IMG/VR virus record: IMGVR_UViG_3300011441_000019
Coordinates: 1-42,394 of that record
DNA: 42,394 nucleotides
Direction: 5' to 3' (one strand)
Source: a virus
Taxonomy: Duplodnaviria > Caudoviricetes
Part shown: in pieces, positions 5,193 through 34,782 of the stretch
How positions within the stretch are numbered: position 1 is the stretch's first letter
Layout of the letters: every line of letters starts with the position of its first letter
Made by a program: the position numbers and the translations under genes
Notes under the pieces: model-generated
Database searches by the model: none
What the model saw: only the letters and a program-made list of their open reading frames with translations
What the model was told of the DNA's origin: nothing

Positions 5193-5931
5193 ATCGTTTC
5201 GCACGACGTTCGATGAGGGCGCCGTTCATTTGCGGGGAGAGCGCGAGCCAGGGATTTTCCGCCGAGGCGTCGCGTTTGATTTCGGTATGACCGTATTCAA
5301 GAGGCGCGATCGGCGGCGCCCAATCACCAGGGGCGCGCCACTCCCAGGAGAACCCTTGCAGGCTCGAATCCAACCGCGCCTCGTGATGACGCGCCTGCAC
5401 GGCCAGCCAATCGAGCAGCTCCGCCGGCGGTTTCTCGGCGCCGCGCTGGCGTTCGATTTGCCGCATCATTTTGCGGCTGGTGGGCAGGGCGTGAGGATTG
5501 GACACCGGACGGCCTGAGCCAAGATCAAGGTACAGGCGCCGCAGACTTTCCATCGTGAACTCTTCGCACTCAGCGGCGGCGGATGACCACTGGGCCGGCA
5601 CTAGCCCCCACAAAGGATCCCAGCCGTGAATCCGATGCCGGTTTCGCCGCGGGTCGCAGTGGTAACGCACCACGTTCAGAATCTCCTGGCTCTGTTCGGG
5701 GCTCACGAGGCCCGTCGGCTGCATTTCCAGCCGCAAGTCCCAGGAGCTGGGTTTCCAGATGGAAATCCGATGGTGCTCGACTATCTCACCTGGATCGACG
5801 TAGCCCCAGTGCCACAGCGGCGCCGGCATCACCACATGGAAGGGGAACGGATAACGGCGGTGGGCGATCACTTCGCGAAAGGTTCGCTCGAATGAGTGCC
5901 GCAGCCAGTTCTGAAATTCCAGATCGTCCAT
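5173..5931 (-). CDS. Hypothetical protein (moron between terS and terL)
   Basis: 252-aa Trp-rich ORF exactly filling the terS-terL gap on the opposite strand. Confidence 0.7.
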   Translation of the reverse strand: MDDLEFQNWLRHSFERTFREVIAHRRYPFPFHVVMPAPLWHWGYVDPGEIVEHHRISIWKPSSWDLRLEMQPTGLVSPEQSQEILNVVRYHCDPRRNRHRIHGWDPLWGLVPAQWSSAAAECEEFTMESLRRLYLDLGSGRPVSNPHALPTSRKMMRQIERQRGAEKPPAELLDWLAVQARHHEARLDSSLQGFSWEWRAPGDWAPPIAPLEYGHTEIKRDASAENPWLALSPQMNGALIERRAKRFIEAMK

Positions 5932-5968
5932 GCACGGGTTAGGATTACTGACTGCGGGCTCAGCCGCA

Positions 5969-7930
5969 ATGTCAGGCCCGCACCCTCAACTGAACGCCGC
6001 CTGGGCACGCGCCTGCACCCCCGCCGACAAGCGCGAGATTTGGGAGTGGCTCCATGACGAGGGGGAATTCCCCTCCGGCACCTACGCCGTGCCGGGGCGC
6101 CTGGACATTTCCACCTGTCCCATGCTCAAGGAGCCGTTCCGCGCGCTGCGCTCGCCCATTGTCCGCAACGTGGTGGTGATGGCCGGCGTGCAATGCCTCA
6201 AGACCCTGCTCGGCGAAGGGTGGCTGCTCTGGAGCATCGTCAATGACCCCGGGCCCACCCAATGGCTCCAGCCCGATGACGAGGAGGCGCGCGAACATGC
6301 CCAGGAACGGTTTCTGCCGTTGGTCGAAAAGTTCCCGGCGGTCCACCGGTTCTTCACCGGCAGCCGTTTCGATAAGCAGAATAACTTCCTCAAGTTCGCC
6401 CACATGTTCCTGCGGATGGAAGGGGCCAATAACCGGGGCAATCTCCAGCGCAAGAGCATCAAGAACCAGATGCGCAGCGAAGTGTGGCAGGCGGGCAAGT
6501 GGCCGCCCGGCCGGCTCAAGGAAGCGGATTCACGCGGGCTCCAGTTCGTCCACAACTCAAAGTCGTATACCGAAAGCCAGCCCGGCTGGCATCTGGACTA
6601 TGGCGTGGATGACATGCACGCCGCCTTTCACGCCGGCGACCGGAACGAGCTGAATTTTCGGTGCGAGTCCTGCGCCCGGCTCCAGCCATTCACCTGGGAC
6701 CACCGACGCCAGGACGGCACCCGCGCGGCGCTTCGTTGGGACGATAATGAGCGCACGCGCCGTGAGAATGGCGAATGGCGCTGGGCCGAGCTGCTCCAGA
6801 CTGTCCGTTACGAGTGCATCCACTGCGGCCATCGGCATCATGACGATCCCTTAACACGCCGGCGGATGACCGCCAGCCTCGAATTCGTGCCGCAGAATCC
6901 GCAAGCCGACCCGGCCACGCGCACCTTCACCTGGAACCAGCTCGCCATGCCCACGCTCTCGTGGTTCGAAACGAAGATCGGCGGGGTGAAGAATTTCCTC
7001 ATCGCGCACGCCCAGGCCCGGCGCGGGCATGACGCCGCCCTGCGGGATTTCTGGATGAAAGTCTGCGCCGAACCGTACCACCCGGCGAAGCACGGCGCCG
7101 CCGGCGACCTGGAGACGATTGAACTCTCTCTCGACGCTCGGCCCTCGACCCTCGACCCGATTGAGGCCAACGGCATTTTGTTCAAGCATCGCCTCGGCGC
7201 GTGCGATGTGCAGCAGGATCACTTTTGGTTCCTCGCGGAAATCTGGAGCGACCAGGGCGACTCGCTCACGTTGCACGCCGAGAAATTGTTTGATTGGGAG
7301 ACGGTGATCCTGCGCCAGCAGCAGTTCGGGATTCTCGACCAGGACTTCACGGTGGACGTGTCCCACCGCTCCCTCGAGGTGAAGACGCAATGCACCGAGC
7401 GCGGGCACTGGGGCAGCCACGGAGGCCTCCGCGCCTGGCTGTGCTGGAAGGCGCTGCGCGGCTCCGACCAGCCGCATTTCATCTGGGTGCCCAAAACGGG
7501 CCCGCGCAAGGGCCAGCGGATCCAGCTCCCCTACACCTGGCCGCCCGAGGTGGGCGACCCCTGCGCGGGCCTGCCGGCGAACCATCCCAAGCGCGCGCAT
7601 TTCAAAGGGCGCACCTGCCCGGTGATCACCTGGAGCAACCCGACCATCAAGGACCTGGTGATCGCCCGGCGCGATGGCAAGGCCAAGGACGTGCAAAGCC
7701 TGGTCGCGCGCGGCGAATGGAACGAGGATTTCCGGATGCACATGCATAGCCAGCGGAAGATCCCCAAGCCGCGCACCAAGGGCAGCGACGTGTGGGTGTG
7801 GGTGAAGTTCCGCGATGATCACTTGCTGGACTGCAAATGCATGGTCACCGTGCGGGCCTTTCAGAAGGGGCTGCTGTCACCGGAGGGAGTCGAGGGTCGA
7901 GAGCCGAAGGACGAAGGCCCAGGCGGCTGA
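5969..7930 (+). CDS. terL: Terminase large subunit, lambda GpA family
   Basis: Adenine-binding/ATPase N-domain (PGRLDISTCP, VQCLKT, SEV), two CxxC zinc motifs, nuclease CDVQQDHFW and DHLLDC. Confidence 0.9.
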   Translation: MSGPHPQLNAAWARACTPADKREIWEWLHDEGEFPSGTYAVPGRLDISTCPMLKEPFRALRSPIVRNVVVMAGVQCLKTLLGEGWLLWSIVNDPGPTQWLQPDDEEAREHAQERFLPLVEKFPAVHRFFTGSRFDKQNNFLKFAHMFLRMEGANNRGNLQRKSIKNQMRSEVWQAGKWPPGRLKEADSRGLQFVHNSKSYTESQPGWHLDYGVDDMHAAFHAGDRNELNFRCESCARLQPFTWDHRRQDGTRAALRWDDNERTRRENGEWRWAELLQTVRYECIHCGHRHHDDPLTRRRMTASLEFVPQNPQADPATRTFTWNQLAMPTLSWFETKIGGVKNFLIAHAQARRGHDAALRDFWMKVCAEPYHPAKHGAAGDLETIELSLDARPSTLDPIEANGILFKHRLGACDVQQDHFWFLAEIWSDQGDSLTLHAEKLFDWETVILRQQQFGILDQDFTVDVSHRSLEVKTQCTERGHWGSHGGLRAWLCWKALRGSDQPHFIWVPKTGPRKGQRIQLPYTWPPEVGDPCAGLPANHPKRAHFKGRTCPVITWSNPTIKDLVIARRDGKAKDVQSLVARGEWNEDFRMHMHSQRKIPKPRTKGSDVWVWVKFRDDHLLDCKCMVTVRAFQKGLLSPEGVEGREPKDEGPGG

Positions 7931-9369: not shown

Positions 9370-9594
9370 ATGCACTACAAAAACGGAAGACAAGCCAAGG
9401 CCGGCGACAAGGTTGTGAACCTCACGCAAGGCATCAGTGGGATTCTCCACAGTTGCAACGCGCAATCCACGAGCTGCAACGGACGTCTGGCGGCCATCAA
9501 CCAGAATGATCCATACGTGACGATTGGCGAGTGCCTGCACCTCGATGACGTGGCCACGGCTTACATTGTCGACACGAGCGCGAAACAGTCCTGA
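9370..9594 (+). CDS. Hypothetical phage protein
   Basis: MHYKNGRQAKAGDKVV..., SH3-like beta pattern, 74 aa. Confidence 0.65.
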   Translation: MHYKNGRQAKAGDKVVNLTQGISGILHSCNAQSTSCNGRLAAINQNDPYVTIGECLHLDDVATAYIVDTSAKQS

Positions 9595-9628
9595 TGGCAC
9601 TGCTGTTGCCGGGCCTGGCGGAGCCTTG

Positions 9629-11395
9629 ATGACCTATCTCGAACAACGCTGGAAGTCCGGCCGGCAAACGGCGGGCGATGCGCGCACCGCGCGCGGCGTG
9701 CCGACCTCCATGGTCGGCCGCGGCTTGTACGAGACGCCCCAGAATACCGGCGAGAGCGATTTCTATCGCCCGCGTCCGGTCGGCAATTTCAACCTCGAGC
9801 AGATGCTCTCCGGCTGGGACCGGCGCGAGCTGGTCGAGTTCTCCCGGCAACTGTTCTGTCACCTCGGCAATTTCGGATATGCCGTCCTCCAGAAAAACAC
9901 TTACGCGGTGGGCGACGCCTGGCTGCCGCAGTACCTCGGCCAGGACAAGGAGTGGGGCAACGCCGCCGAGACCTGGCTGCATGAGACCTGGCTGCCGAAC
10001 TGCGATTGGCACGGCCAGTTTGATTTCGCCACCCTGCTCTACCTCTCCGGCGTGGCTTGGGACGTGGACGGCGATGACGCGGATCTCCTGGCGCTGGACG
10101 AAAGCGGGTTCCCGAAGATCCGCAAGTTCAGCACGGACCGCATTTGCGGCGGACTCTCCGGCGAGAAGATCAAGAGCGGCCGGTTCGATGGCGCGCTCCT
10201 GGATGACGGGGTGATCCACGATGACCAGGGCCGCGTGCTGGGCTACCGGATCATGACGCGCGGCTCGGCCTACCTGAACAGCAGCGATTATCTGGAGGTG
10301 GACGCGGCGAACCTGCACCTGGGCTTCGAGCCGGAATGGGGCTGCCAGCGGCGCGGCATCCCGCGGCCGGCGCGGGCCATCATGGACGGGCTGGACCTCG
10401 AGGACATCGACAAATTCATCAAGCGCGGCATCAAGCAGGAGACGTCCATCGGGCTGGTGCATAACAGCGAGGCGGGCCAGCCGGAGCCGGGCGCCGAGCT
10501 GGAAGGCATCCCCACGGACGAGGACGCCACCGTGGCCAAGGCCGGCGTGGCGGTGCGCAAACTTTACGGCGGGGAAATGTGGTACCTGCGCGCGGGCCTG
10601 GGCGAGAGCATCTCCGCGGTGAACAGCGGCCGTCCGCACGGGCAAACCCTCGCGCAGCTCGAACGGCTGGAGCGGCGCATGTTCAATTCGCTCGGCTGGT
10701 TTTACGAGCTGCTGGACCCTTCGAAGATCGGCGGGGCCAGTGTGCGGCTCATCCAGGACCAGGCGCGCACGTCCATCGCAAGCAAGCAGCGGGCGCTCAA
10801 GCGCCGCGCCAAGCGCGAGGTGCTCTTTGCGCTTTCGGTGGCGATGGAGCGCGGCTGGGTGCCGCGCAACCGCGCCGGGTTCGATTGGATGCAATGGGAA
10901 TTCAACTACCCCGCGGTGCTCACGGTGGATCAGGGTTACGATGACCAGAGCGACGTGAACAAGATGATGCTCGGCATCATCCCCAAAAACCGGCTCTGCC
11001 AGAAAATGGGTTTGTGGAACGAGGACGTGGACGCCGCGCAGCTCGACGAGAAGAAACGACTTATCACGAACGCGCGCGAGCTGCAGGTGGCGGCCAATGC
11101 GGCGGCGAAGGACCCGGGGGACAAGATCACGCTGCGCGAGTGCATCGACCTGCTCTATCGCGACACGCAGCAGGGTCGCTATCCGTACAGCACGCCGGCG
11201 GCGCCCGAGGCGGCGGCGGGCGGCGAGGCCGCAGGGAAAGGGAGCGGGGGAGAAAAGGAGAAGGAGAGCGCGGGCGCCGGCGCCGGCGCGCCGATTCATT
11301 TGAACGTGGATGCGCGGGGGCCGCAGGCGGCGCTGCGCCGGTTCACCATCGCGCGCGATGCGCAGGGCCGCATGATTGGCGTGCAGGAAACGTGA
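9629..11395 (+). CDS. Portal protein, lambda family
   Basis: DVDGD, DGVIHDDQGRVLGYRI, QRRGIP motifs; size and position. Confidence 0.85.
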   Translation: MTYLEQRWKSGRQTAGDARTARGVPTSMVGRGLYETPQNTGESDFYRPRPVGNFNLEQMLSGWDRRELVEFSRQLFCHLGNFGYAVLQKNTYAVGDAWLPQYLGQDKEWGNAAETWLHETWLPNCDWHGQFDFATLLYLSGVAWDVDGDDADLLALDESGFPKIRKFSTDRICGGLSGEKIKSGRFDGALLDDGVIHDDQGRVLGYRIMTRGSAYLNSSDYLEVDAANLHLGFEPEWGCQRRGIPRPARAIMDGLDLEDIDKFIKRGIKQETSIGLVHNSEAGQPEPGAELEGIPTDEDATVAKAGVAVRKLYGGEMWYLRAGLGESISAVNSGRPHGQTLAQLERLERRMFNSLGWFYELLDPSKIGGASVRLIQDQARTSIASKQRALKRRAKREVLFALSVAMERGWVPRNRAGFDWMQWEFNYPAVLTVDQGYDDQSDVNKMMLGIIPKNRLCQKMGLWNEDVDAAQLDEKKRLITNARELQVAANAAAKDPGDKITLRECIDLLYRDTQQGRYPYSTPAAPEAAAGGEAAGKGSGGEKEKESAGAGAGAPIHLNVDARGPQAALRRFTIARDAQGRMIGVQET

Positions 11396-11478: not shown

Positions 11479-11880
11479 ATGGCTCTACTGGTTCCCAACA
11501 ACGGCGAAGGCGACGCGCTCCAGTACTTCGTGAACCGCGCGGCGCCGGAGAACCTGGTGCTCAAGCTCTACACGAACAACGTGACGCCGGCCGAGGGCGA
11601 CACCGCGGCCAGCTACACCGAGGCGGCCGGGTTCGGTTACGCCGCGATCACCCTCACGGGGGCGAGCTGGGGCGCGCCGAGCGAAGGGGCGCCTTCGAGC
11701 ATCGCCTTCGCGCAGCAGACGTTCACTTTCACGGGCGCGCTGGGCAACGTGTATGGCTATTTTCTGGTGCGCGCCTCGAGCGGGCGCATCGCGCTGGCGG
11801 AACGATTCTCGGACGGCCCGTACAACATCGTGAACAACGGCGACCAGATTAAGATTACCCCCACCATCACCTGCGATTGA
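11479..11880 (+). CDS. Putative virion structural protein
   Basis: LKLYTN...GYAAITL...W...FTFTG..GNVYGYFL beta-rich pattern seen in phage minor structural proteins. Confidence 0.65.
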   Translation: MALLVPNNGEGDALQYFVNRAAPENLVLKLYTNNVTPAEGDTAASYTEAAGFGYAAITLTGASWGAPSEGAPSSIAFAQQTFTFTGALGNVYGYFLVRASSGRIALAERFSDGPYNIVNNGDQIKITPTITCD

Positions 11881-11884
11881 TTTT

Positions 11885-12169
11885 ATGGGCGCCCAGGGCA
11901 CCGCCATTCTCGACTTCGGCAGCACTCCGGCCGAAGAGGCCACCGTGGCCGTGACCGGCCAGGGCGCCATTGCCGGCGATTCCCTGTGCGAGGCCTGGTT
12001 CATGAAGGTGGACACGGCCGACAACACGGACGAGCAACACGAGGAAGCGGCGGCGCTCTGCCCCTTGATCTGCGAGAGCGTGATCCCGGGCACTGGCTTC
12101 ACCATTCGCGCCATGCCCATCGCCGCCCTGGGCACCGGCCAATTTCAATGCTGTTGGTGCTGGAACTGA
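11885..12169 (+). CDS. Hypothetical (structural cluster)
   Basis: 94 aa, 4 bp after previous gene. Confidence 0.65.
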   Translation: MGAQGTAILDFGSTPAEEATVAVTGQGAIAGDSLCEAWFMKVDTADNTDEQHEEAAALCPLICESVIPGTGFTIRAMPIAALGTGQFQCCWCWN

Positions 12170-12193
12170 AGACACGAATTTCACGAAGCGATT

Positions 12194-12895
12194 ATGAGCT
12201 GGCTGCACAAAATTCTCGGCAAAGACGGCGCCAGCCAACTGGCGGTCGATCCCAAACATTTCGCGGCGCGGATGAGCGGGCGGCCGATGGAAGTGGGCAC
12301 GCGTGGCGCGTACAGCCTCGGCGTGGTGTCCGGCGTGATGGCGGCCGGGTTGGGCGCGAACTCGGAGATTTTTCAGATGCGCTGGTCCAGCGCCACGCTG
12401 CTGATGCTGCTGCGGTCCATCCGCATCAGCGCGGCCCCTGGCACCACGGCGTTTACGGCCGGACCCATCGAATTCAACCTTACCCTGGCGCGCAGTTGGA
12501 GCGTGGACGGCGGCGGCGGCACGGCGGTGGTGTTCAGCACGGCCAACACCAACAAGAAGCGCACCGATTTTCCGGTCAGCGCGTTTTCGGACACGGGGGT
12601 GCGCCACAGTGCGACGGCGGCTCTGACCGCCGGGACGAAAACCCTGGATACCAACCGGGCGGCCTCGATTTCCAGTTATGTCTCCAGCGTCGCGACCACG
12701 GCGGCCAGTTCGCCGTTTGTGCCGCCGGGCACGATCCTGTGGACGCGCGACACGGCGGAGGAGTACCCGATTCTCTTCGAGCAGAACGAGGGGCTGGTGG
12801 TCCGGGCCACGGTGCCGGCCACGGGCACCTGGCAATTTTCCATTCATGCGGAGTGGGCGGAACTTGATCCGGCCGCGATTGATGGATGGAGTTAG
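12194..12895 (+). CDS. Hypothetical beta-rich (structural cluster)
   Basis: 233 aa, Thr/Ala/Gly-rich. Confidence 0.7.
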   Translation: MSWLHKILGKDGASQLAVDPKHFAARMSGRPMEVGTRGAYSLGVVSGVMAAGLGANSEIFQMRWSSATLLMLLRSIRISAAPGTTAFTAGPIEFNLTLARSWSVDGGGGTAVVFSTANTNKKRTDFPVSAFSDTGVRHSATAALTAGTKTLDTNRAASISSYVSSVATTAASSPFVPPGTILWTRDTAEEYPILFEQNEGLVVRATVPATGTWQFSIHAEWAELDPAAIDGWS

Positions 12896-12907
12896 AAAGG
12901 CAAACTT

Positions 12908-13171
12908 ATGGCGGTAAAAGCTGTTTTTGCGATTGAACAATTCGAGCCCCAAAGCGACGGCTCCTACTACACACGCCTCATGATCTTCTCCGGCGCCAAC
13001 AACTCCGAGAACGTCCAGAACGATCAGGCCTTCGCTCCCACCGCGCTCGCCAGCACCGTCAATGCCGCACTGCATGGCTTCGTGGAGGAGTACATCCAGA
13101 GCGAGTGGGAAGTGGATTTCAACCCCCTGCTCGACTCCGTAAAAATGCTCAACCCGGTCAGCCTGGTGTGA
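12908..13171 (+). CDS. Hypothetical protein
   Basis: 87 aa acidic; GAAAGG upstream. Confidence 0.65.
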   Translation: MAVKAVFAIEQFEPQSDGSYYTRLMIFSGANNSENVQNDQAFAPTALASTVNAALHGFVEEYIQSEWEVDFNPLLDSVKMLNPVSLV

Positions 13172-13719
13172 GCCTGCTGCTGACCCAACTGGCCGGCGGG
13201 CCGGTCACTTACACTTACACCGGCACAGGCGGGCTGGTCCTGGGCGGCACGGCCGCGGTCAGCAAGAGCAAGGATTTCCTGCCCACCGGAGGGCTGGTCC
13301 TGGGCGGGGCGGCGGCGCTGGCGAAGACCAAAACGATCACCGCCTCGGGCGGGCTGGTGTTCAACAGCGGGGCGGCCACCGAGTACGTTTCCGCGATTCC
13401 GCCGGCGCCGCCGGAGCCGACGACCTCCGGGGCCGAGGAATACGCGCCGCGTCGGATGCACGTCTTCCGGCCGCGGGGCGGGCTCGCTTTCGGAGGAGCG
13501 GGGATCTGCGGGATGCGGAGGACGTTCGTTGCCGCGGTTCAACGGCCAACGTTCAACGTTCAACGTTCAACGTTCAGTGGGACGGCGGCGGTGTGCCGAA
13601 GCTACTGCGCGCCCATCTCCGGGAAGTCCGCGTTCCGCGTTCCGCGTTCCGCGTTCCGAACGGAGTTCTCGCCTGACTGCGGGGAGGAGCTGGCCGTGGT
13701 GCTGGCCTTGTTGCAATGA
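13168..13719 (+). CDS. Hypothetical protein with GGLV(L/F)GG repeats
   Basis: GTGA overlap; four ~19-aa repeats (TGGLVLGGxAA); contains heptamer DNA repeats. Confidence 0.6.
   Translation: MSLLLTQLAGGPVTYTYTGTGGLVLGGTAAVSKSKDFLPTGGLVLGGAAALAKTKTITASGGLVFNSGAATEYVSAIPPAPPEPTTSGAEEYAPRRMHVFRPRGGLAFGGAGICGMRRTFVAAVQRPTFNVQRSTFSGTAAVCRSYCAPISGKSAFRVPRSAFRTEFSPDCGEELAVVLALLQ
13547..13658. repeat. Two heptamer tandem arrays: (CAACGTT)x4 and (TCCGCGT)x4
   Basis: Read directly at 13547-13574 and 13627-13658. Confidence 0.9.
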
Positions 13720-14555
13720 AACCCATGTTCTGGTTTTTGGACGCGATGGCGCAGGCGGACGTCGAGGCGCGGCTGGTCCGCGCGGAGGCGGCGGCGTCCC
13801 GCGAAGAGAGCGGAGGCACGGTGCTGGCCCGGCGCCCCACGCGCGACGCCTACGGCGCGGAGATCGAACAGATGCGCATGGCGGGCAGCGTGGCCATCGT
13901 GCCGGTCAAGGGGCCGTTGTTGAAAGGGGCGCATCCGATTTACAAGCAGTACGGTTTTGCGGATTACGATGACGTGAAGGAGGACATGCGCGCGGCGCGC
14001 GAGCAGGGCGCGCAGGCCGTGGTGCTGAACATTGCCTCCCCGGGCGGCATGGCGGTGGGCGCCGGCCAACTGGGCGCGTTCGTGGCGGAGTTCGCCCGGC
14101 ACACTCCCGTTTACAGTTTCACCGATGAGATGCAGTGCAGCGCGGCGGAGTATTTGTCCGGCGCCTGCACGCTGCGCCTGGCCTCGGCGGATGCCATCGT
14201 GGGCAGCATCGGCACGGTGATGGTCACCGTGTCGTTCCAGGGAATGCTGGACGAGGCGGGCATCAAGGCGGAGGTGTTCGCCAGCGGCCCGTTCAAGGCG
14301 GCCGGCAATCGGCTCAAGGATAACACGCCGGAGCAAAGCCAGTATCTCCAGGAGTTCGTGGATAACCTGGCCGGCGAGTTCAAGGGGCACATGCTCAATT
14401 ATCGCGCGGCCTTCGGACTGAATGAGAGTGCGATGCAAGGGCAGGTCTTTACCGGCCGGCAGGGCGTGAGCAACGGGCTGCTCTCGCGCAACGCGCGCAG
14501 CCTCGATGAAGCCGTGGAGCTGGCGATGCGGTTGGAGTTTCCCCTGGGACGCTGA
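13716..14555 (+). CDS. Capsid maturation protease, S49 (SppA/lambda C) family
   Basis: LNIASPGG, CSAAEYL, VGSIGT, GPFKAAG, GQVFTG motifs. Confidence 0.92.
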   Translation: MKPMFWFLDAMAQADVEARLVRAEAAASREESGGTVLARRPTRDAYGAEIEQMRMAGSVAIVPVKGPLLKGAHPIYKQYGFADYDDVKEDMRAAREQGAQAVVLNIASPGGMAVGAGQLGAFVAEFARHTPVYSFTDEMQCSAAEYLSGACTLRLASADAIVGSIGTVMVTVSFQGMLDEAGIKAEVFASGPFKAAGNRLKDNTPEQSQYLQEFVDNLAGEFKGHMLNYRAAFGLNESAMQGQVFTGRQGVSNGLLSRNARSLDEAVELAMRLEFPLGR

Positions 14556-14583: not shown

Positions 14584-14802
14584 GTGCGCGCCGAGTTGCC
14601 TGAGATTTCTTCCGAGAGTTCCCTGCCAAGTTCCATTCCCATCGCCGCGCTGCCGCGCCTGACCGAGCCGGGCCTCTTCCTTCGTTTCCCCAGCGGACGG
14701 GAGTTGCCGCTGGAGGTCACCCGCGATGGACGATTGGTGCGCGTTCCGCCCGCTGCGACGCGGGCGGGGACATCGCAGCGCGATTGTCCCTACCAGTCTT
14801 GA
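14584..14802 (+). CDS. Small hypothetical protein
   Basis: GTG 15 nt after TTGACT, in frame with ORF 14506..14802; 3' end overlaps a REP. Confidence 0.4.
   Translation: MRAELPEISSESSLPSSIPIAALPRLTEPGLFLRFPSGRELPLEVTRDGRLVRVPPAATRAGTSQRDCPYQS
14743..14794 (-). repeat. GTAG-type REP element (copy 1)
   Basis: Reverse complement GGTAGGGACAATCGCGCTGCGATGTCCCCGCCCGCGTCGCAGCGGGCGGAAC; diverged copy at 42023-42073. Confidence 0.7.
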
Positions 14803-14820
14803 CTCCCTTCAAGGCCGCGA

Positions 14821-15300
14821 ATGAATTTGCAAGAAGCTGTCGAGGCCATCCCCGGGCGGGTCACTGAATCCATCAAATCTCTGTTCGCCTCGGGCGACGA
14901 ACGGGTGGCCACGGCCACCAAGGCATCGACCGATGCCAACGCCGCCCGCGCCAGCGCGGAAAAGGAGCGGGACGATTTCAAGGCCAGGGCCGCGCAGGCC
15001 GAGGCGGACCTGGCCACGGCGCGGCAGAGCATCGCCACGCAGGGCGCGGAGTTGAAGGCCGCCCAGGAGAAGCTCACCAAACTCGAGGCCAGCCAGAAGA
15101 CCGTCGAGCAGCTCGCCGCCGAGAAGAGCCAGCAGCAGTGCGCGGCCCAGGGCGTGCCGCCCGGCACGCTGGAGAAGGCGAAGTCCGGCGCGGACGCCGG
15201 CAGCTCGAAGGGGCAGCAGATCACCCGCGCGCAGTTCGAGGCGCTTTCGCACAAGGACAAGGCCGCGTTCTGCAAAGGCGGCGGCGAGATCAAGGACTGA
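14821..15300 (+). CDS. Capsid scaffolding protein
   Basis: Long coiled coil and C-terminal ITRAQFEALSHKDKAAFCKGGG helix-loop-helix; between protease and capsid genes. Confidence 0.75.
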   Translation: MNLQEAVEAIPGRVTESIKSLFASGDERVATATKASTDANAARASAEKERDDFKARAAQAEADLATARQSIATQGAELKAAQEKLTKLEASQKTVEQLAAEKSQQQCAAQGVPPGTLEKAKSGADAGSSKGQQITRAQFEALSHKDKAAFCKGGGEIKD

Positions 15301-15303
15301 CGG

Positions 15304-15336
15304 GATTTCCGATTTCCGATTTCCGATTTCCGATTT
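15304..15336. repeat. Heptamer tandem array (GATTTCC)x4
   Basis: Read directly in scaffold-capsid intergenic region. Confidence 0.9.
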
Positions 15337-15368
15337 TTCAAAACCCACCACACCGCGCTGACGTTCCT

Positions 15369-16661
15369 ATGAAGTTCCCCCTGTTCCGCCTCGCCGCCAT
15401 CACCGCGCTGTTCGCGCTGTGCGCGCAAATCTTTATGGCCACCGGCATGTACGCCGCCTGGCTGGTGTTGTTCGTCGGCTCGGCGGTGCTGGCTAACCCG
15501 CGGTTTTCCCCGGGCCTGTGCGCCAACACGCTGACGAGCCTCATCCCCGACATTTACGCCGCGTTGGACGTCGTCTCGCGCGAGCTGGTGGGCCTCATCC
15601 AGGCGTGTGCGCGCGATAGCCGCGCGGACCGCGTGGCCGCCAACCAGACGTTGCGCATCCCGATTTCGCCGGCCAATGCGGCGGGCGGCAATATCACGCC
15701 GGCCATGACGCTGCCGGCCGCAGCCGACCAGACGATCCTCAACAACACGCTGACGATCTCGAAGCAACGGTTTTTTCCGTTCTCCTGGACGGGTGAGGAG
15801 CAGAAGTCCGTGGATTACGGCCCGGGCTTCCTCACGCTCAAGCAGTATCAGATCGCGCAGGCCATCCGCGCGGCGGTGAACGAGGTGGAGGTGGACGTGG
15901 CCACGGCGGCTTACCAGGGCGCCAGCCGCGCCTTCGGCACCGCGGGCACCACTCCGTTCGCCACGAGCATCGTCGACCTGGCGCAGATCAAAAAGATTCT
16001 GGACGACAATGGCACGCCCATGTCGGACCGCTCGCTGGTGATGAACACCACGGCGGGGGTGAATTTCCGCAGCCTGGCCAACCTCTACAAGGTGAACGAG
16101 GCGGCGGATGCCTCGCTGCTGCGCAAGGGCACACTGGGCAGCATTTACGATTTCGGCGTGCGCGAGAGCGCGCAGATCCCGACGGTGACCAAGGGCACGG
16201 GCGCGGGTTACCTGGTGAACAACGGGGCGGGCTACCCGATCGGCGCGACCGCCATCACGGTGGACACCGGCGCCGGCACGATTCTCAAGGGCGACGTGAT
16301 CACGTTCGCCGGCGATACGAACAAGTACGTGGTGGGCGCGGCGCTGTCCGGCGCCGTCGTCACGCTGGCTCTGCCCGGTTTGCGCCAGGCGGTGGCGGAC
16401 AATGCGGCCATCACGGTGGGCAACAATTTCGCGGGCAACGTGGCGTTCAGCCGCAACGCGGTGTTGCTGGCCACCCGGCTGCCGGCGATCCCGGAGGAAG
16501 GCGACCAGGCGAGCGACCGCATGGTGGTGACGGACCCGAATTCCGGGTTGTCCTTTGAGTTCGCGGTCTACCCTGGCTTCCGGATGAATGTTTACCACGT
16601 CTCGCTGGCGTGGGGCGTGAGCGCGATCAAGCCGGAACATATCGCCATTCTGCTGGGCTAA
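15369..16661 (+). CDS. Major capsid protein, P22 coat-like, with 51-aa hydrophobic leader
   Basis: ANTLTSLIPDIYAALDVVSRELVG..., beta insertion domain (GTILKGDVITFAG), C-terminal LAWGVSAIKPEHIAILLG. Confidence 0.9.
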   Translation: MKFPLFRLAAITALFALCAQIFMATGMYAAWLVLFVGSAVLANPRFSPGLCANTLTSLIPDIYAALDVVSRELVGLIQACARDSRADRVAANQTLRIPISPANAAGGNITPAMTLPAAADQTILNNTLTISKQRFFPFSWTGEEQKSVDYGPGFLTLKQYQIAQAIRAAVNEVEVDVATAAYQGASRAFGTAGTTPFATSIVDLAQIKKILDDNGTPMSDRSLVMNTTAGVNFRSLANLYKVNEAADASLLRKGTLGSIYDFGVRESAQIPTVTKGTGAGYLVNNGAGYPIGATAITVDTGAGTILKGDVITFAGDTNKYVVGAALSGAVVTLALPGLRQAVADNAAITVGNNFAGNVAFSRNAVLLATRLPAIPEEGDQASDRMVVTDPNSGLSFEFAVYPGFRMNVYHVSLAWGVSAIKPEHIAILLG

Positions 16662-16739: not shown

Positions 16740-17129
16740 GTGCTTCGTGATCAAATCCAGCGGGACTTGCAGCGCATCGAGCGCGAGCTGCGCGGTCCGG
16801 ATGATGCCGCGCAATGGATCGTGTACGGCTCGCTCACGCTGCCGTGCTCGCCGACGTCCCTCGAGGACACCATCGCGCTGGATGCCGAGGGCAACGAGAC
16901 CCAGATCACGCAGGCGGTCCTGGTGCGCATGGAGCTTTTCAACCTGCCCGGGATGCAGCCGGTGGAGGGCGAGGATGCGGATGATTTGTTCGCCAGCGTC
17001 GAGGGGCTGCCCAACGTGGGCGATGAGGTGCGGTTCCGGTGGAGTTCCTATCGCGTGGTGAAGCGGCGGTTCGACGCCATGCTGGCCAGCGTGCGGCTTG
17101 ACCTGGCGGACGTGGGCAGCAACGAATGA
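16740..17129 (+). CDS. Putative head-tail connector/head closure protein
   Basis: 129 aa; LPNVGDEVRF...YRVV beta-barrel pattern; follows capsid gene. Confidence 0.55.
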   Translation: MLRDQIQRDLQRIERELRGPDDAAQWIVYGSLTLPCSPTSLEDTIALDAEGNETQITQAVLVRMELFNLPGMQPVEGEDADDLFASVEGLPNVGDEVRFRWSSYRVVKRRFDAMLASVRLDLADVGSNE

Positions 17130-18712
17130 AAACGATTTTCTCACCTGCCCGCATTGCCGGCCTGCTGGCCTGCCTGCTCACCTTCCCGGCCGCCGCGCAA
17201 TACATCCACACCCTCGAGTACACGGACCCCGGGCGGCGCATCATCGACAAGGTGAATTCCAACACGGTGGCCTCGGTGTCGGCCGGGAGCACGTTGTTCG
17301 TGGATGCGGCGTTGGGGAGTGATTCGACCGGGCGGCGCGGCCGGCCGGACCGCCCGTTTGCCACGCCGTGGGTGGCACGCACGAATGCCCAGGATGGGGA
17401 TCTGATCGTGGTGCGCCCGGGGCTCTACCAAACCGGCACGACCAACTTGTTCAAGGCCGGCCGGCTGACGTGGGATTTTCAAGGGGCCACGTTGCGGTTC
17501 GTGGACATCCCTACCAACAGCAGCGGTTGCGGCATGTTCGACGATCGGTTTACCGGCGCAGTGGCCTGCAGCAACGACGTCATTGGGTCGCTCACTCTCC
17601 AGTATAATTCCGGCACCAACGTCTTTCTCAACACCAACGACTGCACCCTCGGCTACAACACCAATGCCCTGGGCGCCATTGTGCTGAGTAACATTCCGGC
17701 GCCGTCGCTGATCCGTTGGGTGGCCGAGACCAAAATTGAAACGGTCGGCGCCGCGCCCGTGCCGTTTTCGCTCTACCTCCACAATTGCCAGACGGGAACC
17801 GTCTTCCGGACCCTCTCGGACAGCCAGCTCCTCTGGCCTTCCAACCAGGTCGTGATCACGACCAACTGTCCCGCGTCACCGGGCGATCCCTGGACGGTGG
17901 ACATCGGGAAAAACTTCATCTGGTGGGGGCCCAGCGCCACGGCGGAGGTTTACGTGGATTACACCATCCACAATCAGCTTTACGCGGTGGACGGCTACGG
18001 CGAGACCTCCAGTGATTCCGGAGAACTCCGTTACCGCGCCAACTTGAGCGACGGGAAAATCTACCTGGTGGGCCGGTCAAAAAGTTGGAAATTCTGGGGC
18101 GAGGCGCTGGAATGGAAAAACACCGCTCCCAACTCGCCCACGCTCTTTGAATTCCACAGCGCCGGCAGCCATTACCTGGGCGGCCAGAAGGCTTCGACGC
18201 GCGGCGGCACCATCTTCGACTTCACCAACCCGCAAAACAGCGGCGATACGAATTTGGTCACTTGGGTGGATTTTGATAAGGTGAGCGGTTCCAACGGCTG
18301 GGCGCGTGTGACCCACGGGCACCTGCGCGGCCGGGTCGGCCATTTCGAGCAAAACGGCCCGGCCAATGGCACTCCCGGAATCTTCGTCACGAACATCTCG
18401 GCACTGGTCTCCTTGAGCGGCGAGGACATGTACGCCGAGGGCACGTCGGTGAGCCACGGCGGAGGGCGCACCAAGCTGATCAACTACGAGATTTATTCCA
18501 CCAATCGCGATCCCGTGCTCGTCACCGGCAGCGGCCTGCGCCTCCACAACAACGTCCTGGTGCCCGGACTGCTCGCCACCAACTCCATTCGTGCGGCCAC
18601 CGCCCAGACCGTGGGCGTTTACGGGATGCTGCTCCAGAAATCCAACGCCCACGCCAATATCACTTTTTCGAGCGGCCTGACCAACGTGATCACCGACTTC
18701 GACACGGACTGA
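17126..18712 (+). CDS. Secreted beta-helix (pectate-lyase-like) protein, possible spike/depolymerase
   Basis: Sec signal MKTIFSPARIAGLLACLLTFPAAA|Q; FVDAALGSD...PFATP...DGDLIVVRPGLY beta-helix cap motif. Confidence 0.7.
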   Translation: MKTIFSPARIAGLLACLLTFPAAAQYIHTLEYTDPGRRIIDKVNSNTVASVSAGSTLFVDAALGSDSTGRRGRPDRPFATPWVARTNAQDGDLIVVRPGLYQTGTTNLFKAGRLTWDFQGATLRFVDIPTNSSGCGMFDDRFTGAVACSNDVIGSLTLQYNSGTNVFLNTNDCTLGYNTNALGAIVLSNIPAPSLIRWVAETKIETVGAAPVPFSLYLHNCQTGTVFRTLSDSQLLWPSNQVVITTNCPASPGDPWTVDIGKNFIWWGPSATAEVYVDYTIHNQLYAVDGYGETSSDSGELRYRANLSDGKIYLVGRSKSWKFWGEALEWKNTAPNSPTLFEFHSAGSHYLGGQKASTRGGTIFDFTNPQNSGDTNLVTWVDFDKVSGSNGWARVTHGHLRGRVGHFEQNGPANGTPGIFVTNISALVSLSGEDMYAEGTSVSHGGGRTKLINYEIYSTNRDPVLVTGSGLRLHNNVLVPGLLATNSIRAATAQTVGVYGMLLQKSNAHANITFSSGLTNVITDFDTD

Positions 18713-18714
18713 TT

Positions 18715-19092
18715 ATGGGCGCTCCCACCTGCTGGCTTTCCGGCCTGCTGGCCTGCTTCCTGACGGGATGCGCTGGGCCAGGCAGGCCAGCAGGCCGGCA
18801 GGCCAGCAGGCCGGAGCGGGGGCTCGCGGTGCCGGTCCCGGGCGGCGGGCACCAGCTCATGACCGCGCGGGCGGTCGAACCCATGTTCAAGGCCGCGGCG
18901 ATCATCGGCACCCGATCGTTCACCTGGCGCTTTGATGTGCCGCAGGGGACGACGGTTTCCAACTTCTGGTGGGACTTGCAACGGAGCACCAACCTCCGCA
19001 CGTGGGTGACCATCCAAACGAACATCATCGCGCCGATCGATGTGCTCATCACGAACGAGATGGAGTTTTTTCGGCTGCGGGGACGGCTGTGA
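18715..19092 (+). CDS. Putative lipoprotein with C-terminal export-type domain
   Basis: Lipobox FLTG|C; C-terminus LQRSTNLRTW...TNEMEFFRL. Confidence 0.6.
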   Translation: MGAPTCWLSGLLACFLTGCAGPGRPAGRQASRPERGLAVPVPGGGHQLMTARAVEPMFKAAAIIGTRSFTWRFDVPQGTTVSNFWWDLQRSTNLRTWVTIQTNIIAPIDVLITNEMEFFRLRGRL

Positions 19093-27137: not shown

Positions 27138-27433
27138 ACCCCACGCCGGAACAATGCCAGGCGCTCATTGAGGCGCTGGCTCCATTTGAATCGCCGTATG
27201 TGCTGACGCCGGACGAAGAGGTCTGTCTGAATATCCTCCGCGAGGCGGCCCAGAAGATCGCCGCGGGCGAGGACCTGGTGCCGCCGGTCGAGGGGCAGAC
27301 GCACAAGTTGCGGCTGTGGCGGCGGGTGAGTGTGGCGTTCATCCATCCCGAGGCGCCTCGGGCGCGCCAGGTCACGGCGCCGGATGGCCGGAGCCCGGCA
27401 GCCCAGGGATTGACCTTGGAGCCCCGCAAATGA
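27134..27433 (+). CDS. Hypothetical protein
   Basis: 99 aa with ATGA overlaps at both ends. Confidence 0.55.
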   Translation: MNPTPEQCQALIEALAPFESPYVLTPDEEVCLNILREAAQKIAAGEDLVPPVEGQTHKLRLWRRVSVAFIHPEAPRARQVTAPDGRSPAAQGLTLEPRK

Positions 27434-29754
27434 AGACGTTTTTCCTGTTGTTCCTGGCTGCGTCGCTGCCGGCAGCCGGCGCGGAATTGATCACGGCGAC
27501 CATCACGATCACCAACACGCCGTCCGGGCTGACCTCGAATCTCACGGTGAACGGGACGGCCACGCGCTATTGGACGAATGACATCACCAGCTCGCCGGGC
27601 ACGCTCATCCAGCAGACGAACAACCCTTCCAACTCGGCCACGCAGCTCATCAATCATCTGACGGCTTACCCGGCGGTGTCGGGGCATTATCTTTACCAGA
27701 CGACGCCGACCAACGTGTTGATCCGCGGGCGGGTCGGAGAGGTGATGGCGGTGACCATCGCGGGCGGGTGGGCGTTCGTGACGTACAGCACGCAGCAGGT
27801 GTCCACGCCCACGTTCGTGGTGCGGATGCCGTTGACGGTGGAGGCGAACACGAACCAGACGAATATCGCGAGCAGCCTGGTGCGCGGGATGTCGGATTCG
27901 AGCACGAACAGCTTCTCGACGAATGCCGTCGCCACTACCCATTTCCTGACGAAGGGAGCGAGCGCGTTGCAGACGGTGACTGCGCCGGTCTCTCTTCAGC
28001 AGCTCACGAATTCGACGAACAAGGGCACGATCACGGGCGGCACTTATACCAACGCGGCCCTGGACAATCCGACCTCGACGAATCTTGTCAATCGAGGCAA
28101 CGCCATCCGGAGCGAGGGGAGCGGCGGGAACAGCCTGCAAGTCGGCAGCAACGCCGTTGCACTCGGGTCCAGAAGCGTCGCCATGGGCAACTCCTCGATT
28201 GCCACGAACGCGGACACCATTGCCATTGGCACCTCGGCCCGCGCCACCAACGACAACAGCACCGCCGTGGGAAATTCCTCCCAAGCCGTCGGCAACAACT
28301 CATCGGCCTACGGTTACAATTCTGTTGCCACCGGAGCAGACACCGCCGCGTTGGGCAATGGCGCCAGCGCCCTGGGCGCCAGCGTCACGGCCGTGGGCAG
28401 CGGCGCCTCCGGCAACAGCTATCAGGCAACCGCGCTCGGCAACACTGCCGAAGCCAACGCCATCGGAGCCATCGCACTTGGTGCCGGCGCCATCGCTGGC
28501 CACAGCAACTCTGTGGCGCTCGGAACCTCTTCCGCCACCACCACCACCAACCAAGTCCGCCTCGGCAGCTCCACCACGCTCTCCGTTCCATTCGCCGCGG
28601 AACTCGCGAACGCCCGCAACCTCAACGCCGTCGGCACCAATCTTTTTCACGGCGTCGTCGCCTACGACACGGAGCTGACCGTCTCGTCCGTCGCGGCCGG
28701 CCACAACGTCATCGACTCCTCGACGAACACTGTCCTTTACCTCACCGGTTCTCCTGGCGCGGCGTGGACCTTGGGCGGCTTCACCGGGGCCAAGAACGAC
28801 GGACGCATCCTCAAGGTGTTCAATCAAACCGGATTCGACGTGACGATCTTCAACGAGAGCGGCACGGCCCCGACCGCTTCAGATCGCATCCTGACCTACG
28901 CCGGCGCTGGCGGTGTGACGAACGTCCTCGTCACCGGCAATGGCTACATGGAGTTCAGCTACTCCACCGCCGTCAATCGCTGGCTGCTTGTCGCGCCCTC
29001 CGTGGACGTCACCGCCGTGGCCACCAACTCCGTCGCCAACGTGGACGGCTCCGCGACGAACCTCAACACCTACGCCAGCGCGGGCAATAAAGTGCCCCTC
29101 ACCGTCAACGGCTTCATCGGCGCTGGCACGAACCATTTCCAGGTCCTCAACTCCAACGGCGTCCCGGTCCTGAGCGTGCGCAGCAACGGAACCACCGTCC
29201 ACAGCAACATCACGATCACTCCATTCGGCCCCGAGATCGGCGTGCCTCATCGGCTCGTCACCTTCACCAACGAAGTGACAGTGACCAACACCACCAGCGA
29301 GACCTCTCTCATTTCCGGCGTCGGCTGGGGCACTTACACCATCCCGGCCAACTACCTCTCGCCAGCCATGACGGTGCAGTTCAAATTCTGGGGCAAGCTC
29401 AACACCGATGGTGCCGTGCCCAACCACGTCCTCTCCCTCAAACTCGGAAGCACCGTCATCGCCACAAACCTCGGCACATTCACCGTCAACCTAAGCAACG
29501 ATTCCTGGCAGTTCGATGGTGCGTTTACCTGCCGGCTCACCGGCGCCAGCGGTTCTGTCAAAGCGCAGGGTCAATTCGCCACCAGCGCCGCCCTCGGCGG
29601 GCTCTCCACCAGCCGCACCTTGAAAATGGGCATCACGTATGACGCCGTGACCATCGACACGACCGCGGCGCAGACCATCGACTTCACGCTCGCCCCAGGC
29701 GACGCCCAGACCGGCATAACCACGACCGGCGGATTCATCATGGTCATACCCTGA
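27430..29754 (+). CDS. Tail fibre/adhesin with YadA-head-like repeats and Sec signal peptide
   Basis: MKTFFLLFLAASLPAAGA|E; about nine 14-aa S/T-x-A-[ILVM]-G repeats; no aromatic-ended autotransporter barrel at the C-terminus. Confidence 0.8.
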   Translation: MKTFFLLFLAASLPAAGAELITATITITNTPSGLTSNLTVNGTATRYWTNDITSSPGTLIQQTNNPSNSATQLINHLTAYPAVSGHYLYQTTPTNVLIRGRVGEVMAVTIAGGWAFVTYSTQQVSTPTFVVRMPLTVEANTNQTNIASSLVRGMSDSSTNSFSTNAVATTHFLTKGASALQTVTAPVSLQQLTNSTNKGTITGGTYTNAALDNPTSTNLVNRGNAIRSEGSGGNSLQVGSNAVALGSRSVAMGNSSIATNADTIAIGTSARATNDNSTAVGNSSQAVGNNSSAYGYNSVATGADTAALGNGASALGASVTAVGSGASGNSYQATALGNTAEANAIGAIALGAGAIAGHSNSVALGTSSATTTTNQVRLGSSTTLSVPFAAELANARNLNAVGTNLFHGVVAYDTELTVSSVAAGHNVIDSSTNTVLYLTGSPGAAWTLGGFTGAKNDGRILKVFNQTGFDVTIFNESGTAPTASDRILTYAGAGGVTNVLVTGNGYMEFSYSTAVNRWLLVAPSVDVTAVATNSVANVDGSATNLNTYASAGNKVPLTVNGFIGAGTNHFQVLNSNGVPVLSVRSNGTTVHSNITITPFGPEIGVPHRLVTFTNEVTVTNTTSETSLISGVGWGTYTIPANYLSPAMTVQFKFWGKLNTDGAVPNHVLSLKLGSTVIATNLGTFTVNLSNDSWQFDGAFTCRLTGASGSVKAQGQFATSAALGGLSTSRTLKMGITYDAVTIDTTAAQTIDFTLAPGDAQTGITTTGGFIMVIP

Positions 29755-30966: not shown

Positions 30967-32379
30967 CTAAGCTCTGCGCGCGGCGCCGCTGGTTCGCGAC
31001 TGATTCGCGACCGCGGAGGCGTCCGCCAAGAGCCTAAATTCCGGCTGGTGCAACTCGCAGGCCTCCGGCCCCAGGGCAAACCACGCCTCGGCATCCTGAT
31101 ACTTCGCCGTGCGATTCACGTAATGCACACGCGCCATCGTCGCAGAGTTTCCGGCCTGGCGGGCCACGTCCTCGAGGCTCACGCCGATCGCCTTCGCGTG
31201 CGAGCTCGCCGAGCGCCGCAGGACGTTATGCAGCCACGGCAGCCCGGCGCTGGCAGCCACGCGCCGGAGAAACTTGTGCATGTCCATGTACGGCGCGATG
31301 CGCTCGCGCAACCCGGCTCCCTTGGGACCGAACCGCGTCAGCCAGCGCCGGCAATTCTCCGGCAAAGCCACCACGCGCGGCCGCGGCTTTGACCTGCGTC
31401 CTTTGGCAATCTCCCCGCTGATTTCAATGAACCCGTGCTCCAGGTCCACGGCCGGCCATTCCAGCCGCTTCAACTCGGCGGCGCGGACCGCGGCGAACGC
31501 GCCGATCACCAGGTAAGGAATCAGCCGGCGATGCCGGTCCGTTTTGTCCGCCTCGCGTAAAAGCCGCTTCAACTCCTCCGCGCGCCAAATGTCCCGCATC
31601 TTCACGGCCACCACCGGCTTTTTCAGACCCTCCGCGGCGGCGCTCGCTTCACGTGACACCAACCCTTCGCTGGCGGCCCATTTGAAAAAGCCGACCAACG
31701 CCGTGCGGTAATTCACCAGCGTTTTATTCTCCAACGCACGACCCTCGACGCGCCGCGCCTTCAGCCAGGCCCAAATCTCCGCCGGGGCCCAATCACACAC
31801 CGGTCCAGGGAAGGCATCCGCCACACGCACCAGGCGATCCTCCAGATCCGTCCCGTGTGGGATGCCGATGGAATCCAGCCGGCGCTTGTCATCGAGGAAC
31901 CGCACGATCGCGGCGGCGCCATCCACGCGCTGCAACCGGCTCGAGTAACGCGCCACCGCATCCGCCCAGGCCCGCTCCTCGAACCCGCGCAACTCCGACA
32001 ACCCCGGCAGCCGGTCATGCGCGCGAAAGAACGCCTCCGTGCCACCGCGCAAACGCCGCAGCCCCTCCTCGGCATCGATGCCGAGTTTCGACAACGCCAG
32101 GCGCCACGCACGCCAGGCCAGCACCTCATGCTCGGGCAACACTGCCTCGTTGCCCCTCCGTTCATGCAACTCCTTCGCCTTCGCTTTGGCCCAGCTCCTG
32201 GCCTCCTCTTCGTTGGGGAACTCCTTGCGAAAAACTTTCGACACCACGCCCAGCCGGATCTGTCGCGGCGCGCCCTGCCAGCGCACCTGCCATTTTTGGT
32301 AAACCCGCCCCTTTTTGGAATACGCCCAACTAAACACCGGCAACTGCACATTGCCGTGCGACACGGGCCGATGCTTCAC
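30967..32379 (-). CDS. int: Tyrosine integrase
   Basis: AVRAAEL (R), IAKG (K), HNVLRR, AGNS, HY catalytic set; adjacent att core. Confidence 0.93.
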   Translation of the reverse strand: MKHRPVSHGNVQLPVFSWAYSKKGRVYQKWQVRWQGAPRQIRLGVVSKVFRKEFPNEEEARSWAKAKAKELHERRGNEAVLPEHEVLAWRAWRLALSKLGIDAEEGLRRLRGGTEAFFRAHDRLPGLSELRGFEERAWADAVARYSSRLQRVDGAAAIVRFLDDKRRLDSIGIPHGTDLEDRLVRVADAFPGPVCDWAPAEIWAWLKARRVEGRALENKTLVNYRTALVGFFKWAASEGLVSREASAAAEGLKKPVVAVKMRDIWRAEELKRLLREADKTDRHRRLIPYLVIGAFAAVRAAELKRLEWPAVDLEHGFIEISGEIAKGRRSKPRPRVVALPENCRRWLTRFGPKGAGLRERIAPYMDMHKFLRRVAASAGLPWLHNVLRRSASSHAKAIGVSLEDVARQAGNSATMARVHYVNRTAKYQDAEAWFALGPEACELHQPEFRLLADASAVANQSRTSGAARRA

Positions 32380-34332: not shown

Positions 34333-34782
34333 ATGGCCACCTACGAAAAAGCCCCGCGTGAATTTGTCGATTTCGCCAACGCCATCCTCTGCGAATTCGA
34401 CACCCACAAGCGCCTCCTCGATGCCAAGGTCCGCGTTGATTACGTCTTCGCCCGCGCCAGCCTGGACAAATGGGGCGAGCCCAAAGGCCCGGCCATCATG
34501 CACCACGGCGTCCGCGCACTCGGCTACGCGCGCATCATCGGGCTCAAAGACCGCGCCATGGGCCGGGGCGATGCTGAGATCGTCATCGATGGCGATTGGT
34601 GGCTGAAAGCCAAACTGCCCGAGCAGAAAGCCCTGCTCGACCACGAGCTGCACCACATCAGCGTCCGCGAGACCGAAGCCCACATCATCAAACGCGACGA
34701 TCTGGATCGGCCCCTCCTGCAACTGCGCCCGCACGATTTCGAGTTCGGTCAATTCTACTGGCCGGACCTGTGCAAGAAATGA
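34333..34782 (+). CDS. Putative phage metallopeptidase
   Basis: ALLDHELHH (HExxH) and RPHDFE motifs. Confidence 0.8.
   Translation: MATYEKAPREFVDFANAILCEFDTHKRLLDAKVRVDYVFARASLDKWGEPKGPAIMHHGVRALGYARIIGLKDRAMGRGDAEIVIDGDWWLKAKLPEQKALLDHELHHISVRETEAHIIKRDDLDRPLLQLRPHDFEFGQFYWPDLCKK

Follow-up and report, generated by a model that had tools for sequence, protein, structure and literature searches.

The DNA analysed here, referred to as the window, is a virus record of 42,394 bases with an estimated completeness of 49%. Its head module is lambda-like and consists of a gpA terminase, a lambda-family portal, an S49 protease, a likely scaffold of 159 aa and a capsid gene (Table 1). The capsid gene opens at ATG 15369, ends with TAA 16661 and encodes 430 aa. 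Its P22-type core starts with ANTLTSLIPD at GCC 15522 and is preceded by a TGC codon, where an initiator Met would be usual; the reading of the frame and codons confirmed the preliminary description of this locus, which had proposed a leader of 51 aa in front of the core.

Table 1. Head-module genes and capsid leader features in the window
Feature	Coordinates	Strand	Basis
gpA-type terminase large subunit	5930..7930	+	PF05876
Lambda-family portal protein	9524..11395	+	PF05136
S49-family head maturation protease	13716..14555	+	PF01343 (E 3.5e-23), phrog_53
Likely scaffolding protein, 159 aa, without leader	14821..15300	+	Position; match to upstream protease/scaffold family profile
7-nt tandem repeat in the scaffold-capsid gap	15304..15331	+	Repeat family D6
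51-aa hydrophobic capsid leader in place of the usual initiator Met	15369..15521	+	Reading frame, GC3, hydropathy
Predicted leader helix 1, aa 4-25	15378..15443	+	AlphaFold2, pLDDT about 66-79; KD17 up to 2.18
Predicted leader helix 2, aa 27-42; likely second hairpin arm	15447..15494	+	AlphaFold2; KD17 1.89
Flexible linker up to the Cys/Ala junction, putative cleavage region	15495..15524	+	pLDDT <50 at aa 45-49
P22-type (HK97-fold) major capsid protein core, 379 aa	15522..16661	+	PF11651, phrog_283; Foldseek

In the S49 protein, Ser and Lys motifs lie at residues 141 and 191 and presumably supply the catalytic Ser and Lys; its maximum KD19 is 1.59, with no clear membrane anchor. The product of the gene between protease and capsid is likely a scaffold, judging from its position and profile match. 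Between the portal and S49 genes lie five or six ORFs without a Pfam match (11479-13719, plus strand), one of which matches phrog_10467. Two further 7-nt tandem repeats are found in or near the late genes (13537-13569 and 13627-13654), and all three, including the one at 15304-15331, differ from one another; 7-nt tandem repeats of such a kind occur in Verrucomicrobiota genomes. The head-tail region holds a protein of 528 aa whose start resembles a signal peptide and which has no Pfam or PHROG match (17126-18712, plus strand), and a 125-aa lipoprotein-like ORF without a Pfam match (18715-19092, plus strand). A YadA-head repeat protein is encoded in the tail region (27316-29754, plus strand), a D12 adenine methyltransferase at 39344-40171 (plus strand) and a tyrosine integrase at 30967-32379 (minus strand), the phage likely being temperate. 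A 784-aa minus-strand ORF over the capsid gene occupies the exact antisense frame and was taken as a shadow. The leader-bearing relatives suggest that the host is perhaps a member of the Verrucomicrobiota.

The capsid core and its leader

Residues 52-430 of the capsid protein align to positions 2-383 of phrog_283 (E 2e-90), and the PF11651 match (E 4e-12) reaches 46.1 bits against a curated cut-off of 24. In an AlphaFold2 model built from an 88-row alignment (mean pLDDT 87), the core has an HK97-type fold nearest to the P22/Sf6 coats; among solved structures, the best Foldseek match is the P22 procapsid 8i1v (E 9e-19, TM about 0.62). A sequence search of the PDB found no relative. The leader alone matched no Pfam or PHROG family and no holin, and gave no usable match in the ESM Atlas. 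The Cys/Ala junction between leader and core coincides with the position of the Met in leaderless homologues.

Kyte-Doolittle averages over 17-residue windows peak at 2.18 and 1.89 in the leader, and AlphaFold2 predicts two helices, in agreement with the basic start and two hydrophobic stretches that had been described from the sequence. Hydropathy alone is no proof of membrane spanning, because a beta strand of the core peaks at 1.83, close to the value of helix 2. The leader is likely membrane-like, with two predicted helices that are uncharged and follow a basic start. Signal peptidase II recognises a lipobox of the form [LVI]-[ASTVI]-[GAS]-C. The window junction reads P-G-L-C, which does not match the lipobox, and the Cys is not conserved among leaders.

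The leader is very likely translated, as judged from codon composition and start context. The third codon position is G or C in 46 of 50 leader codons, against a GC content of 0.636 for the window (p 4e-6), and GC3 is 0.92 in the leader and 0.90 in the core, compared to 0.36 in the upstream gap. Of the 16 candidate codons in 15303-15522, the one in the most weakly folded surroundings is ATG 15369 (-0.9 kcal/mol), while the context of CTG 15516 is at -16.5 kcal/mol. The opposite reading, in which the leader would be untranslated and either translation would begin at a near-cognate codon beside 15522 or the sequence would contain an error, is barely credible. It draws on the lack of a Shine-Dalgarno sequence upstream of ATG 15369 and on the rarity of the leader among the best homologues; however, most other late genes of the window likewise have no clear Shine-Dalgarno sequence (by eye), and the GC3 signature and open start context speak for translation. 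A near-cognate start beside 15522, such as the CTG 15516 that had been named as a possible refutation, is unlikely because the codon two before the junction differs widely among relatives (CTC, CTG, TTG, CTT, ATC, GCT, ATG). In addition, Cys occupies position -1 in four other homologues. A contig of run X1 spans 14759-15556 with zero differing letters; X1 is possibly the source sample and so is not independent, and runs X2 and X3 cover the leader poorly.

Selection was assessed among relatives, as the preliminary description had suggested. Over 17 disjoint leader pairs, chosen by nucleotide identity and mostly of the betaproteobacterial type, substitutions number 68, 53 and 166 at codon positions 1, 2 and 3, compared to 37, 39 and 43 in the 30 bases upstream. 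The pooled pN/pS is 0.33 for 22 pairs, a value biased low because these pairs were chosen by amino-acid identity. By these counts the leaders of relatives are under purifying selection, which also argues against an untranslated leader, while the two-helix type of the window is itself too diverged to measure.

Distribution and exchange of leaders

Among the 119 best homologues, six bear a hydrophobic leader of 47-66 aa and 113 have no long leader, in line with the preliminary description, according to which homologues usually begin M-A-N. The absence of the leader from close relatives had been put forward as grounds for rejecting it; the absence is real for these 113 proteins, but it indicates an optional leader, not an artefact. 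Among the top viral loci, 78 of which were readable, none has a long leader and three have a leader of 13-18 aa. Searches for non-Met junctions yielded 114 distinct leaders, 79 of them long and 35 short; these searches favour Gly or Cys at the junction and yield no frequency.

Long leaders are carried by proteins of Ralstonia insidiosa and R. mannitolilytica, which fall in the same 90% cluster as one of the loci (L167), by proteins of Acidovorax sp. 107, Duganella and Variovorax, which include sequences of cultured strains, and by capsid genes in two Verrucomicrobiota genomes. Two draws of 401 genomes centred on these Verrucomicrobiota carriers contained five further copies, whose open frames of 386-394 aa are too short to include a leader of the long type; one of the five shares its genome with a leader-bearing copy. 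Short leaders are found in the Rhizobium phages P106B, an isolated phage, and RHph_X2_24. None of the ten records examined, out of 50,697, was an isolated phage bearing a long leader. Apparent leaders of the coat protein of Escherichia coli phage vB_EcoS-683R6 and of Caulobacter phage DMCA were rejected, as a Met adjoins the N-arm in both; the TTG start given in GenBank for the vB_EcoS-683R6 gene looks 31 codons too early (L236:6980-7075). Separately, three proteins of 79-114 aa (P0256, P0290 and P0333) combine a twin-arginine-like start with only the first ~25 residues of the capsid N-arm. One of them, P0256, sits on contigs of up to 56 kb, and a search of the context of these proteins found only relatives without the arm.

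Across the family, long leaders range from 35 to 69 aa, and three types can be told apart by eye. The first has two hydrophobic helices and includes the window, L128, L149, L135, P0003 and P0126; the second combines a single hydrophobic helix with a Pro and an amphipathic helix rich in Ala; the third consists of an amphipathic helix of 35-44 aa alone. Of the 79 long leaders, 78 carry a net positive charge in their first ten residues, and acidic residues account for 2%. Many leaders do not span a membrane: KD19 is near 1.0 for the 36-aa type and falls to as low as -1.1 for short leaders. All three long types could sit in or on the cytoplasmic leaflet, and the capsid domain would then remain intracellular.

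In a FastTree phylogeny of 245 de-duplicated capsid cores, the long-leader state changes about 25 times, compared to a mean of 49 and a minimum of 43 after shuffling. The cores nearest to that of the window belong to one carrier (P0003) and three leaderless proteins, and near-identical cores exist both with and without a leader. Short leaders form a single clade with support of 1.0, within which P0127 was mislabelled as long through an over-long start call. In the pairs L210/L218 and L192/L199, leader identity is 0.77-0.79 at a core dN of 0.42, and such similar leaders on very different cores suggest that leader and core recombine near the junction. On these comparisons, the leader is a module that members of the P22-type coat-protein family can have or lack and can exchange, and the core evidently works without it in many phages.

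Leader ends, scaffolds and proteases

The residue before the Ala varies among leaders (G, C, H, R, Y or F), so a single protease motif is not proven. Gly is at -1 in 70 of 79 long leaders, an excess partly built into the search pattern. Long leaders mostly end in L-G or L/F/V-C, and short leaders in A-[YH] before the Ala. A matrix built from 25 capsid-leader ends gave four distinct matches among 3180 ORFs, all of them scaffold N-termini at long-leader loci (L184, L212, L213 and L228, from three phage groups only), and zero matches in shuffles and in 1223 ORFs of leaderless loci. By eye, the scaffolds of L145, L152 and L170 resemble the matrix-matched ones, and the scaffold leaders occupy the Met position of leaderless scaffolds such as those of L020 and L203. 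The scaffolds in most long-leader loci and in the window are leaderless. In the isolated phage P106B (L237:1593-6155), portal, scaffold and capsid start alike, with short leaders ending near [ST]-[AG]-A-[FY] (by eye). Scaffolds of L139, L177, L050, L061, L079 and L239 have a short basic-hydrophobic N-terminus followed by D/E and a Gly run, and such cleavable-leader-like N-termini also occur in phages with a leaderless capsid.

The leader end common to capsid and some scaffolds, together with the merely amphipathic character of many leaders, favours a removable propeptide that is independent of the membrane and would recruit a chaperone or host protease, or pack with the scaffold in the manner of 80alpha leaders or of a small HK97 delta domain. 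A role in binding a common chaperone is suggested for the 80alpha leaders in the accessible text of PMC5744158. However, two long uncharged helices behind a basic start exceed what a protease tag needs, and a separate scaffold gene is present, which leaves this reading somewhat unlikely.

A census of head proteases, in which identical cores were counted once and 35 incomplete loci were excluded, found a protease at 3 of 45 scorable long-leader loci (42 without), at none of 17 short-leader loci, and at 31 of 63 scorable leaderless loci (32 without). The three protease-bearing long-leader loci are the window and two others, all of the two-helix type, and in L128 a ClpP-type enzyme takes the place of S49. 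Whole-record searches for S49, S78, ClpP and rhomboid proteases were negative in all 32 other leader-bearing genomes, 24 of which are at least 90% complete, while control searches were positive in 11, 4, 12 and 14 of 14 genomes, respectively. Rhomboid was rejected as the leader protease (0 of 33 records), and for TldD/E, considered as the host enzyme, a literature search gave no supporting paper. A putative phage metallopeptidase of family PF18894 is encoded in the window (34333-34782, plus strand). This family is present in 11 of 24 records with long leaders, in none of 9 with short leaders and in none of 22 without a leader, and is only a weak lead, because it is missing from many complete carriers and is confounded by kinship.

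Given the census and the 32 negative genomes, S49 is neither needed for the leader nor predictive of it. As a head protease cannot be recognised in most carriers, processing likely falls to an enzyme of the host. The earlier proposal that S49 cleaves the leader therefore fails as a general rule, but may apply in the window phage, as all three carriers with a protease have leaders of the two-helix type. A membrane tether cut by the phage's own S49 protease would also fit the presence of the S49 gene, with its motifs, two genes upstream of the capsid gene; against it stand the absence of S49 from the 32 other carriers, the ClpP-type enzyme of L128 and the 31 leaderless loci with a head protease, and it appears unlikely.

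The lack of a conserved P1 residue, and of an identified enzyme among the families searched, would also suit a leader that stays uncut inside the mature head or is released as a small membrane peptide acting in lysis timing, exclusion or anti-defence, as would the swapping of leaders as a unit between distant cores. Both variants are decidedly unlikely: the junction falls on the Met position in two unrelated proteins, capsid and scaffold, hundreds of hydrophobic 51-aa pieces would presumably crowd the DNA space of the head, and a separately acting peptide finds no match to a holin or other family.

Signal peptidase I follows the (-3,-1) rule and cuts a few residues after the hydrophobic stretch, and tailed-phage heads are filled in the cytoplasm. 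Export of the capsid precursor, which the preliminary description had considered, would make the leader a Sec signal peptide, consistent with its basic start and hydrophobic core and with the [LAC]-x-A found one residue past the junction. Many long leaders, however, place the site about 25-35 residues beyond the first hydrophobic stretch, some leader types have no such stretch, and the cytoplasmic filling of heads is at odds with export, so that this reading is very improbable.

Proposed role and comparison with known systems

The reading we tentatively prefer, and which may be correct, is that of an optional membrane-binding propeptide that keeps capsid subunits on the inner membrane until it is cut off near the Cys/Ala junction, in most carriers by a host enzyme. 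The 51-residue leader would anchor new subunits to the inner membrane, on the side facing the cytoplasm, until a cut close to the junction removed it, either ahead of shell assembly or in its course. Cleavage would yield an A-N-T-L N-terminus, the same as that of leaderless relatives after loss of the Met. In most carriers the enzyme would be a host protease, with S49 as an alternative in the window phage. We infer membrane binding, topology, cleavage and enzyme, as well as a purpose in concentrating or timing assembly. In HK97-fold proteins, N-terminal extensions point into the shell. Permanent tethering would therefore be difficult to reconcile with a closed head full of DNA, and release is expected before or during assembly. 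It is conceivable, though somewhat doubtful, that in many Gram-negative tailed phages every capsid subunit is membrane-anchored and released by a host protease on the cytoplasmic side, with a swappable leader switching this step on or off; head assembly of the HK97-fold type would then include an undescribed membrane-gated step.

Tailed-phage capsid subunits are taken to be soluble. If the preferred reading is true, it points to a host protease acting in head assembly. New here are the selection on leaders, their pattern of gain and loss, the link to scaffolds, the protease census and the culturable carriers. The coat family offers a clean test through near-identical cores with and without a leader, cultured Acidovorax, Variovorax and Duganella carriers, and the isolated phage P106B. 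In a literature search covering main texts, mostly from outside the subscription journals, no paper came up that describes membrane-type leaders on the capsid proteins of tailed phages, and the accessible parts of PMC9658991 and PMC10654107 hold nothing relevant to such leaders. Removable capsid propeptides and membrane-bound proheads are already known, as the accessible text of two papers documents (PMC5744158; PMC9958956).

The coats of P22 (gp5), Sf6 (gp5) and CUS-3 (PF11651; PDB 8i1v, 5l35 and 8skg) have the same core fold as the window capsid, which differs from them in its 51-aa hydrophobic leader before the N-arm and in its lambda-like head module (gpA terminase, lambda portal, S49). 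The P22, Sf6 and CUS-3 coat proteins start at the N-arm and are not known to be cleaved. The HK97 delta domain is likewise an N-terminal extension of an HK97-fold capsid protein. It is a coiled-coil of about 100 aa that is removed at maturation, replaces the scaffold and is essential, whereas the window leader is hydrophobic and optional and is accompanied by a separate scaffold gene. M13 procoat, that is, pVIII with its signal peptide, is a coat protein that its phage synthesises with a membrane leader that can be cleaved off, but M13 is filamentous and extruded through the membrane, with an unrelated fold and a mature coat that is itself a membrane protein.

In 80alpha, according to the accessible text of PMC5744158, which also mentions the fused scaffolding domain of HK97, capsid and scaffold have a leader in common that the host protease Prp cuts off, and capsid cleavage is dispensable. 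On this account, 80alpha resembles the leader family in having an N-terminal leader motif on the capsid and, in some cases here, on scaffolds, in needing no phage protease and in the Ala after the cut, which is putative here. The motif shared by capsid and scaffold is found in three groups of relatives by the matrix and in three loci by eye, but not in the window. As far as that text describes them, the 80alpha leaders are 13-14 aa long and mimic the L27 leader, whereas those described here are 35-69 aa long, hydrophobic, from Gram-negative hosts and optional among close relatives. The L27-like Prp cut also falls between Phe and Ala, compared to Cys and Ala at the window junction, and the short leaders, with A-[YH] before the Ala, come closer to it.

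According to the accessible text of PMC9958956, the T4 prohead is built at the inner membrane and comes free on cleavage. A 65-aa N-terminal piece of T4 gp23 is removed at maturation, much as is proposed for the leader. In that source, however, the T4 tether is the portal, with gp40, and the protease is the phage's own gp21, while the tether proposed here would be a membrane segment on each capsid subunit. Contact between prohead and membrane is thus known through the portal of T4, and a membrane-type propeptide on every subunit, if real, would be an added step of assembly.
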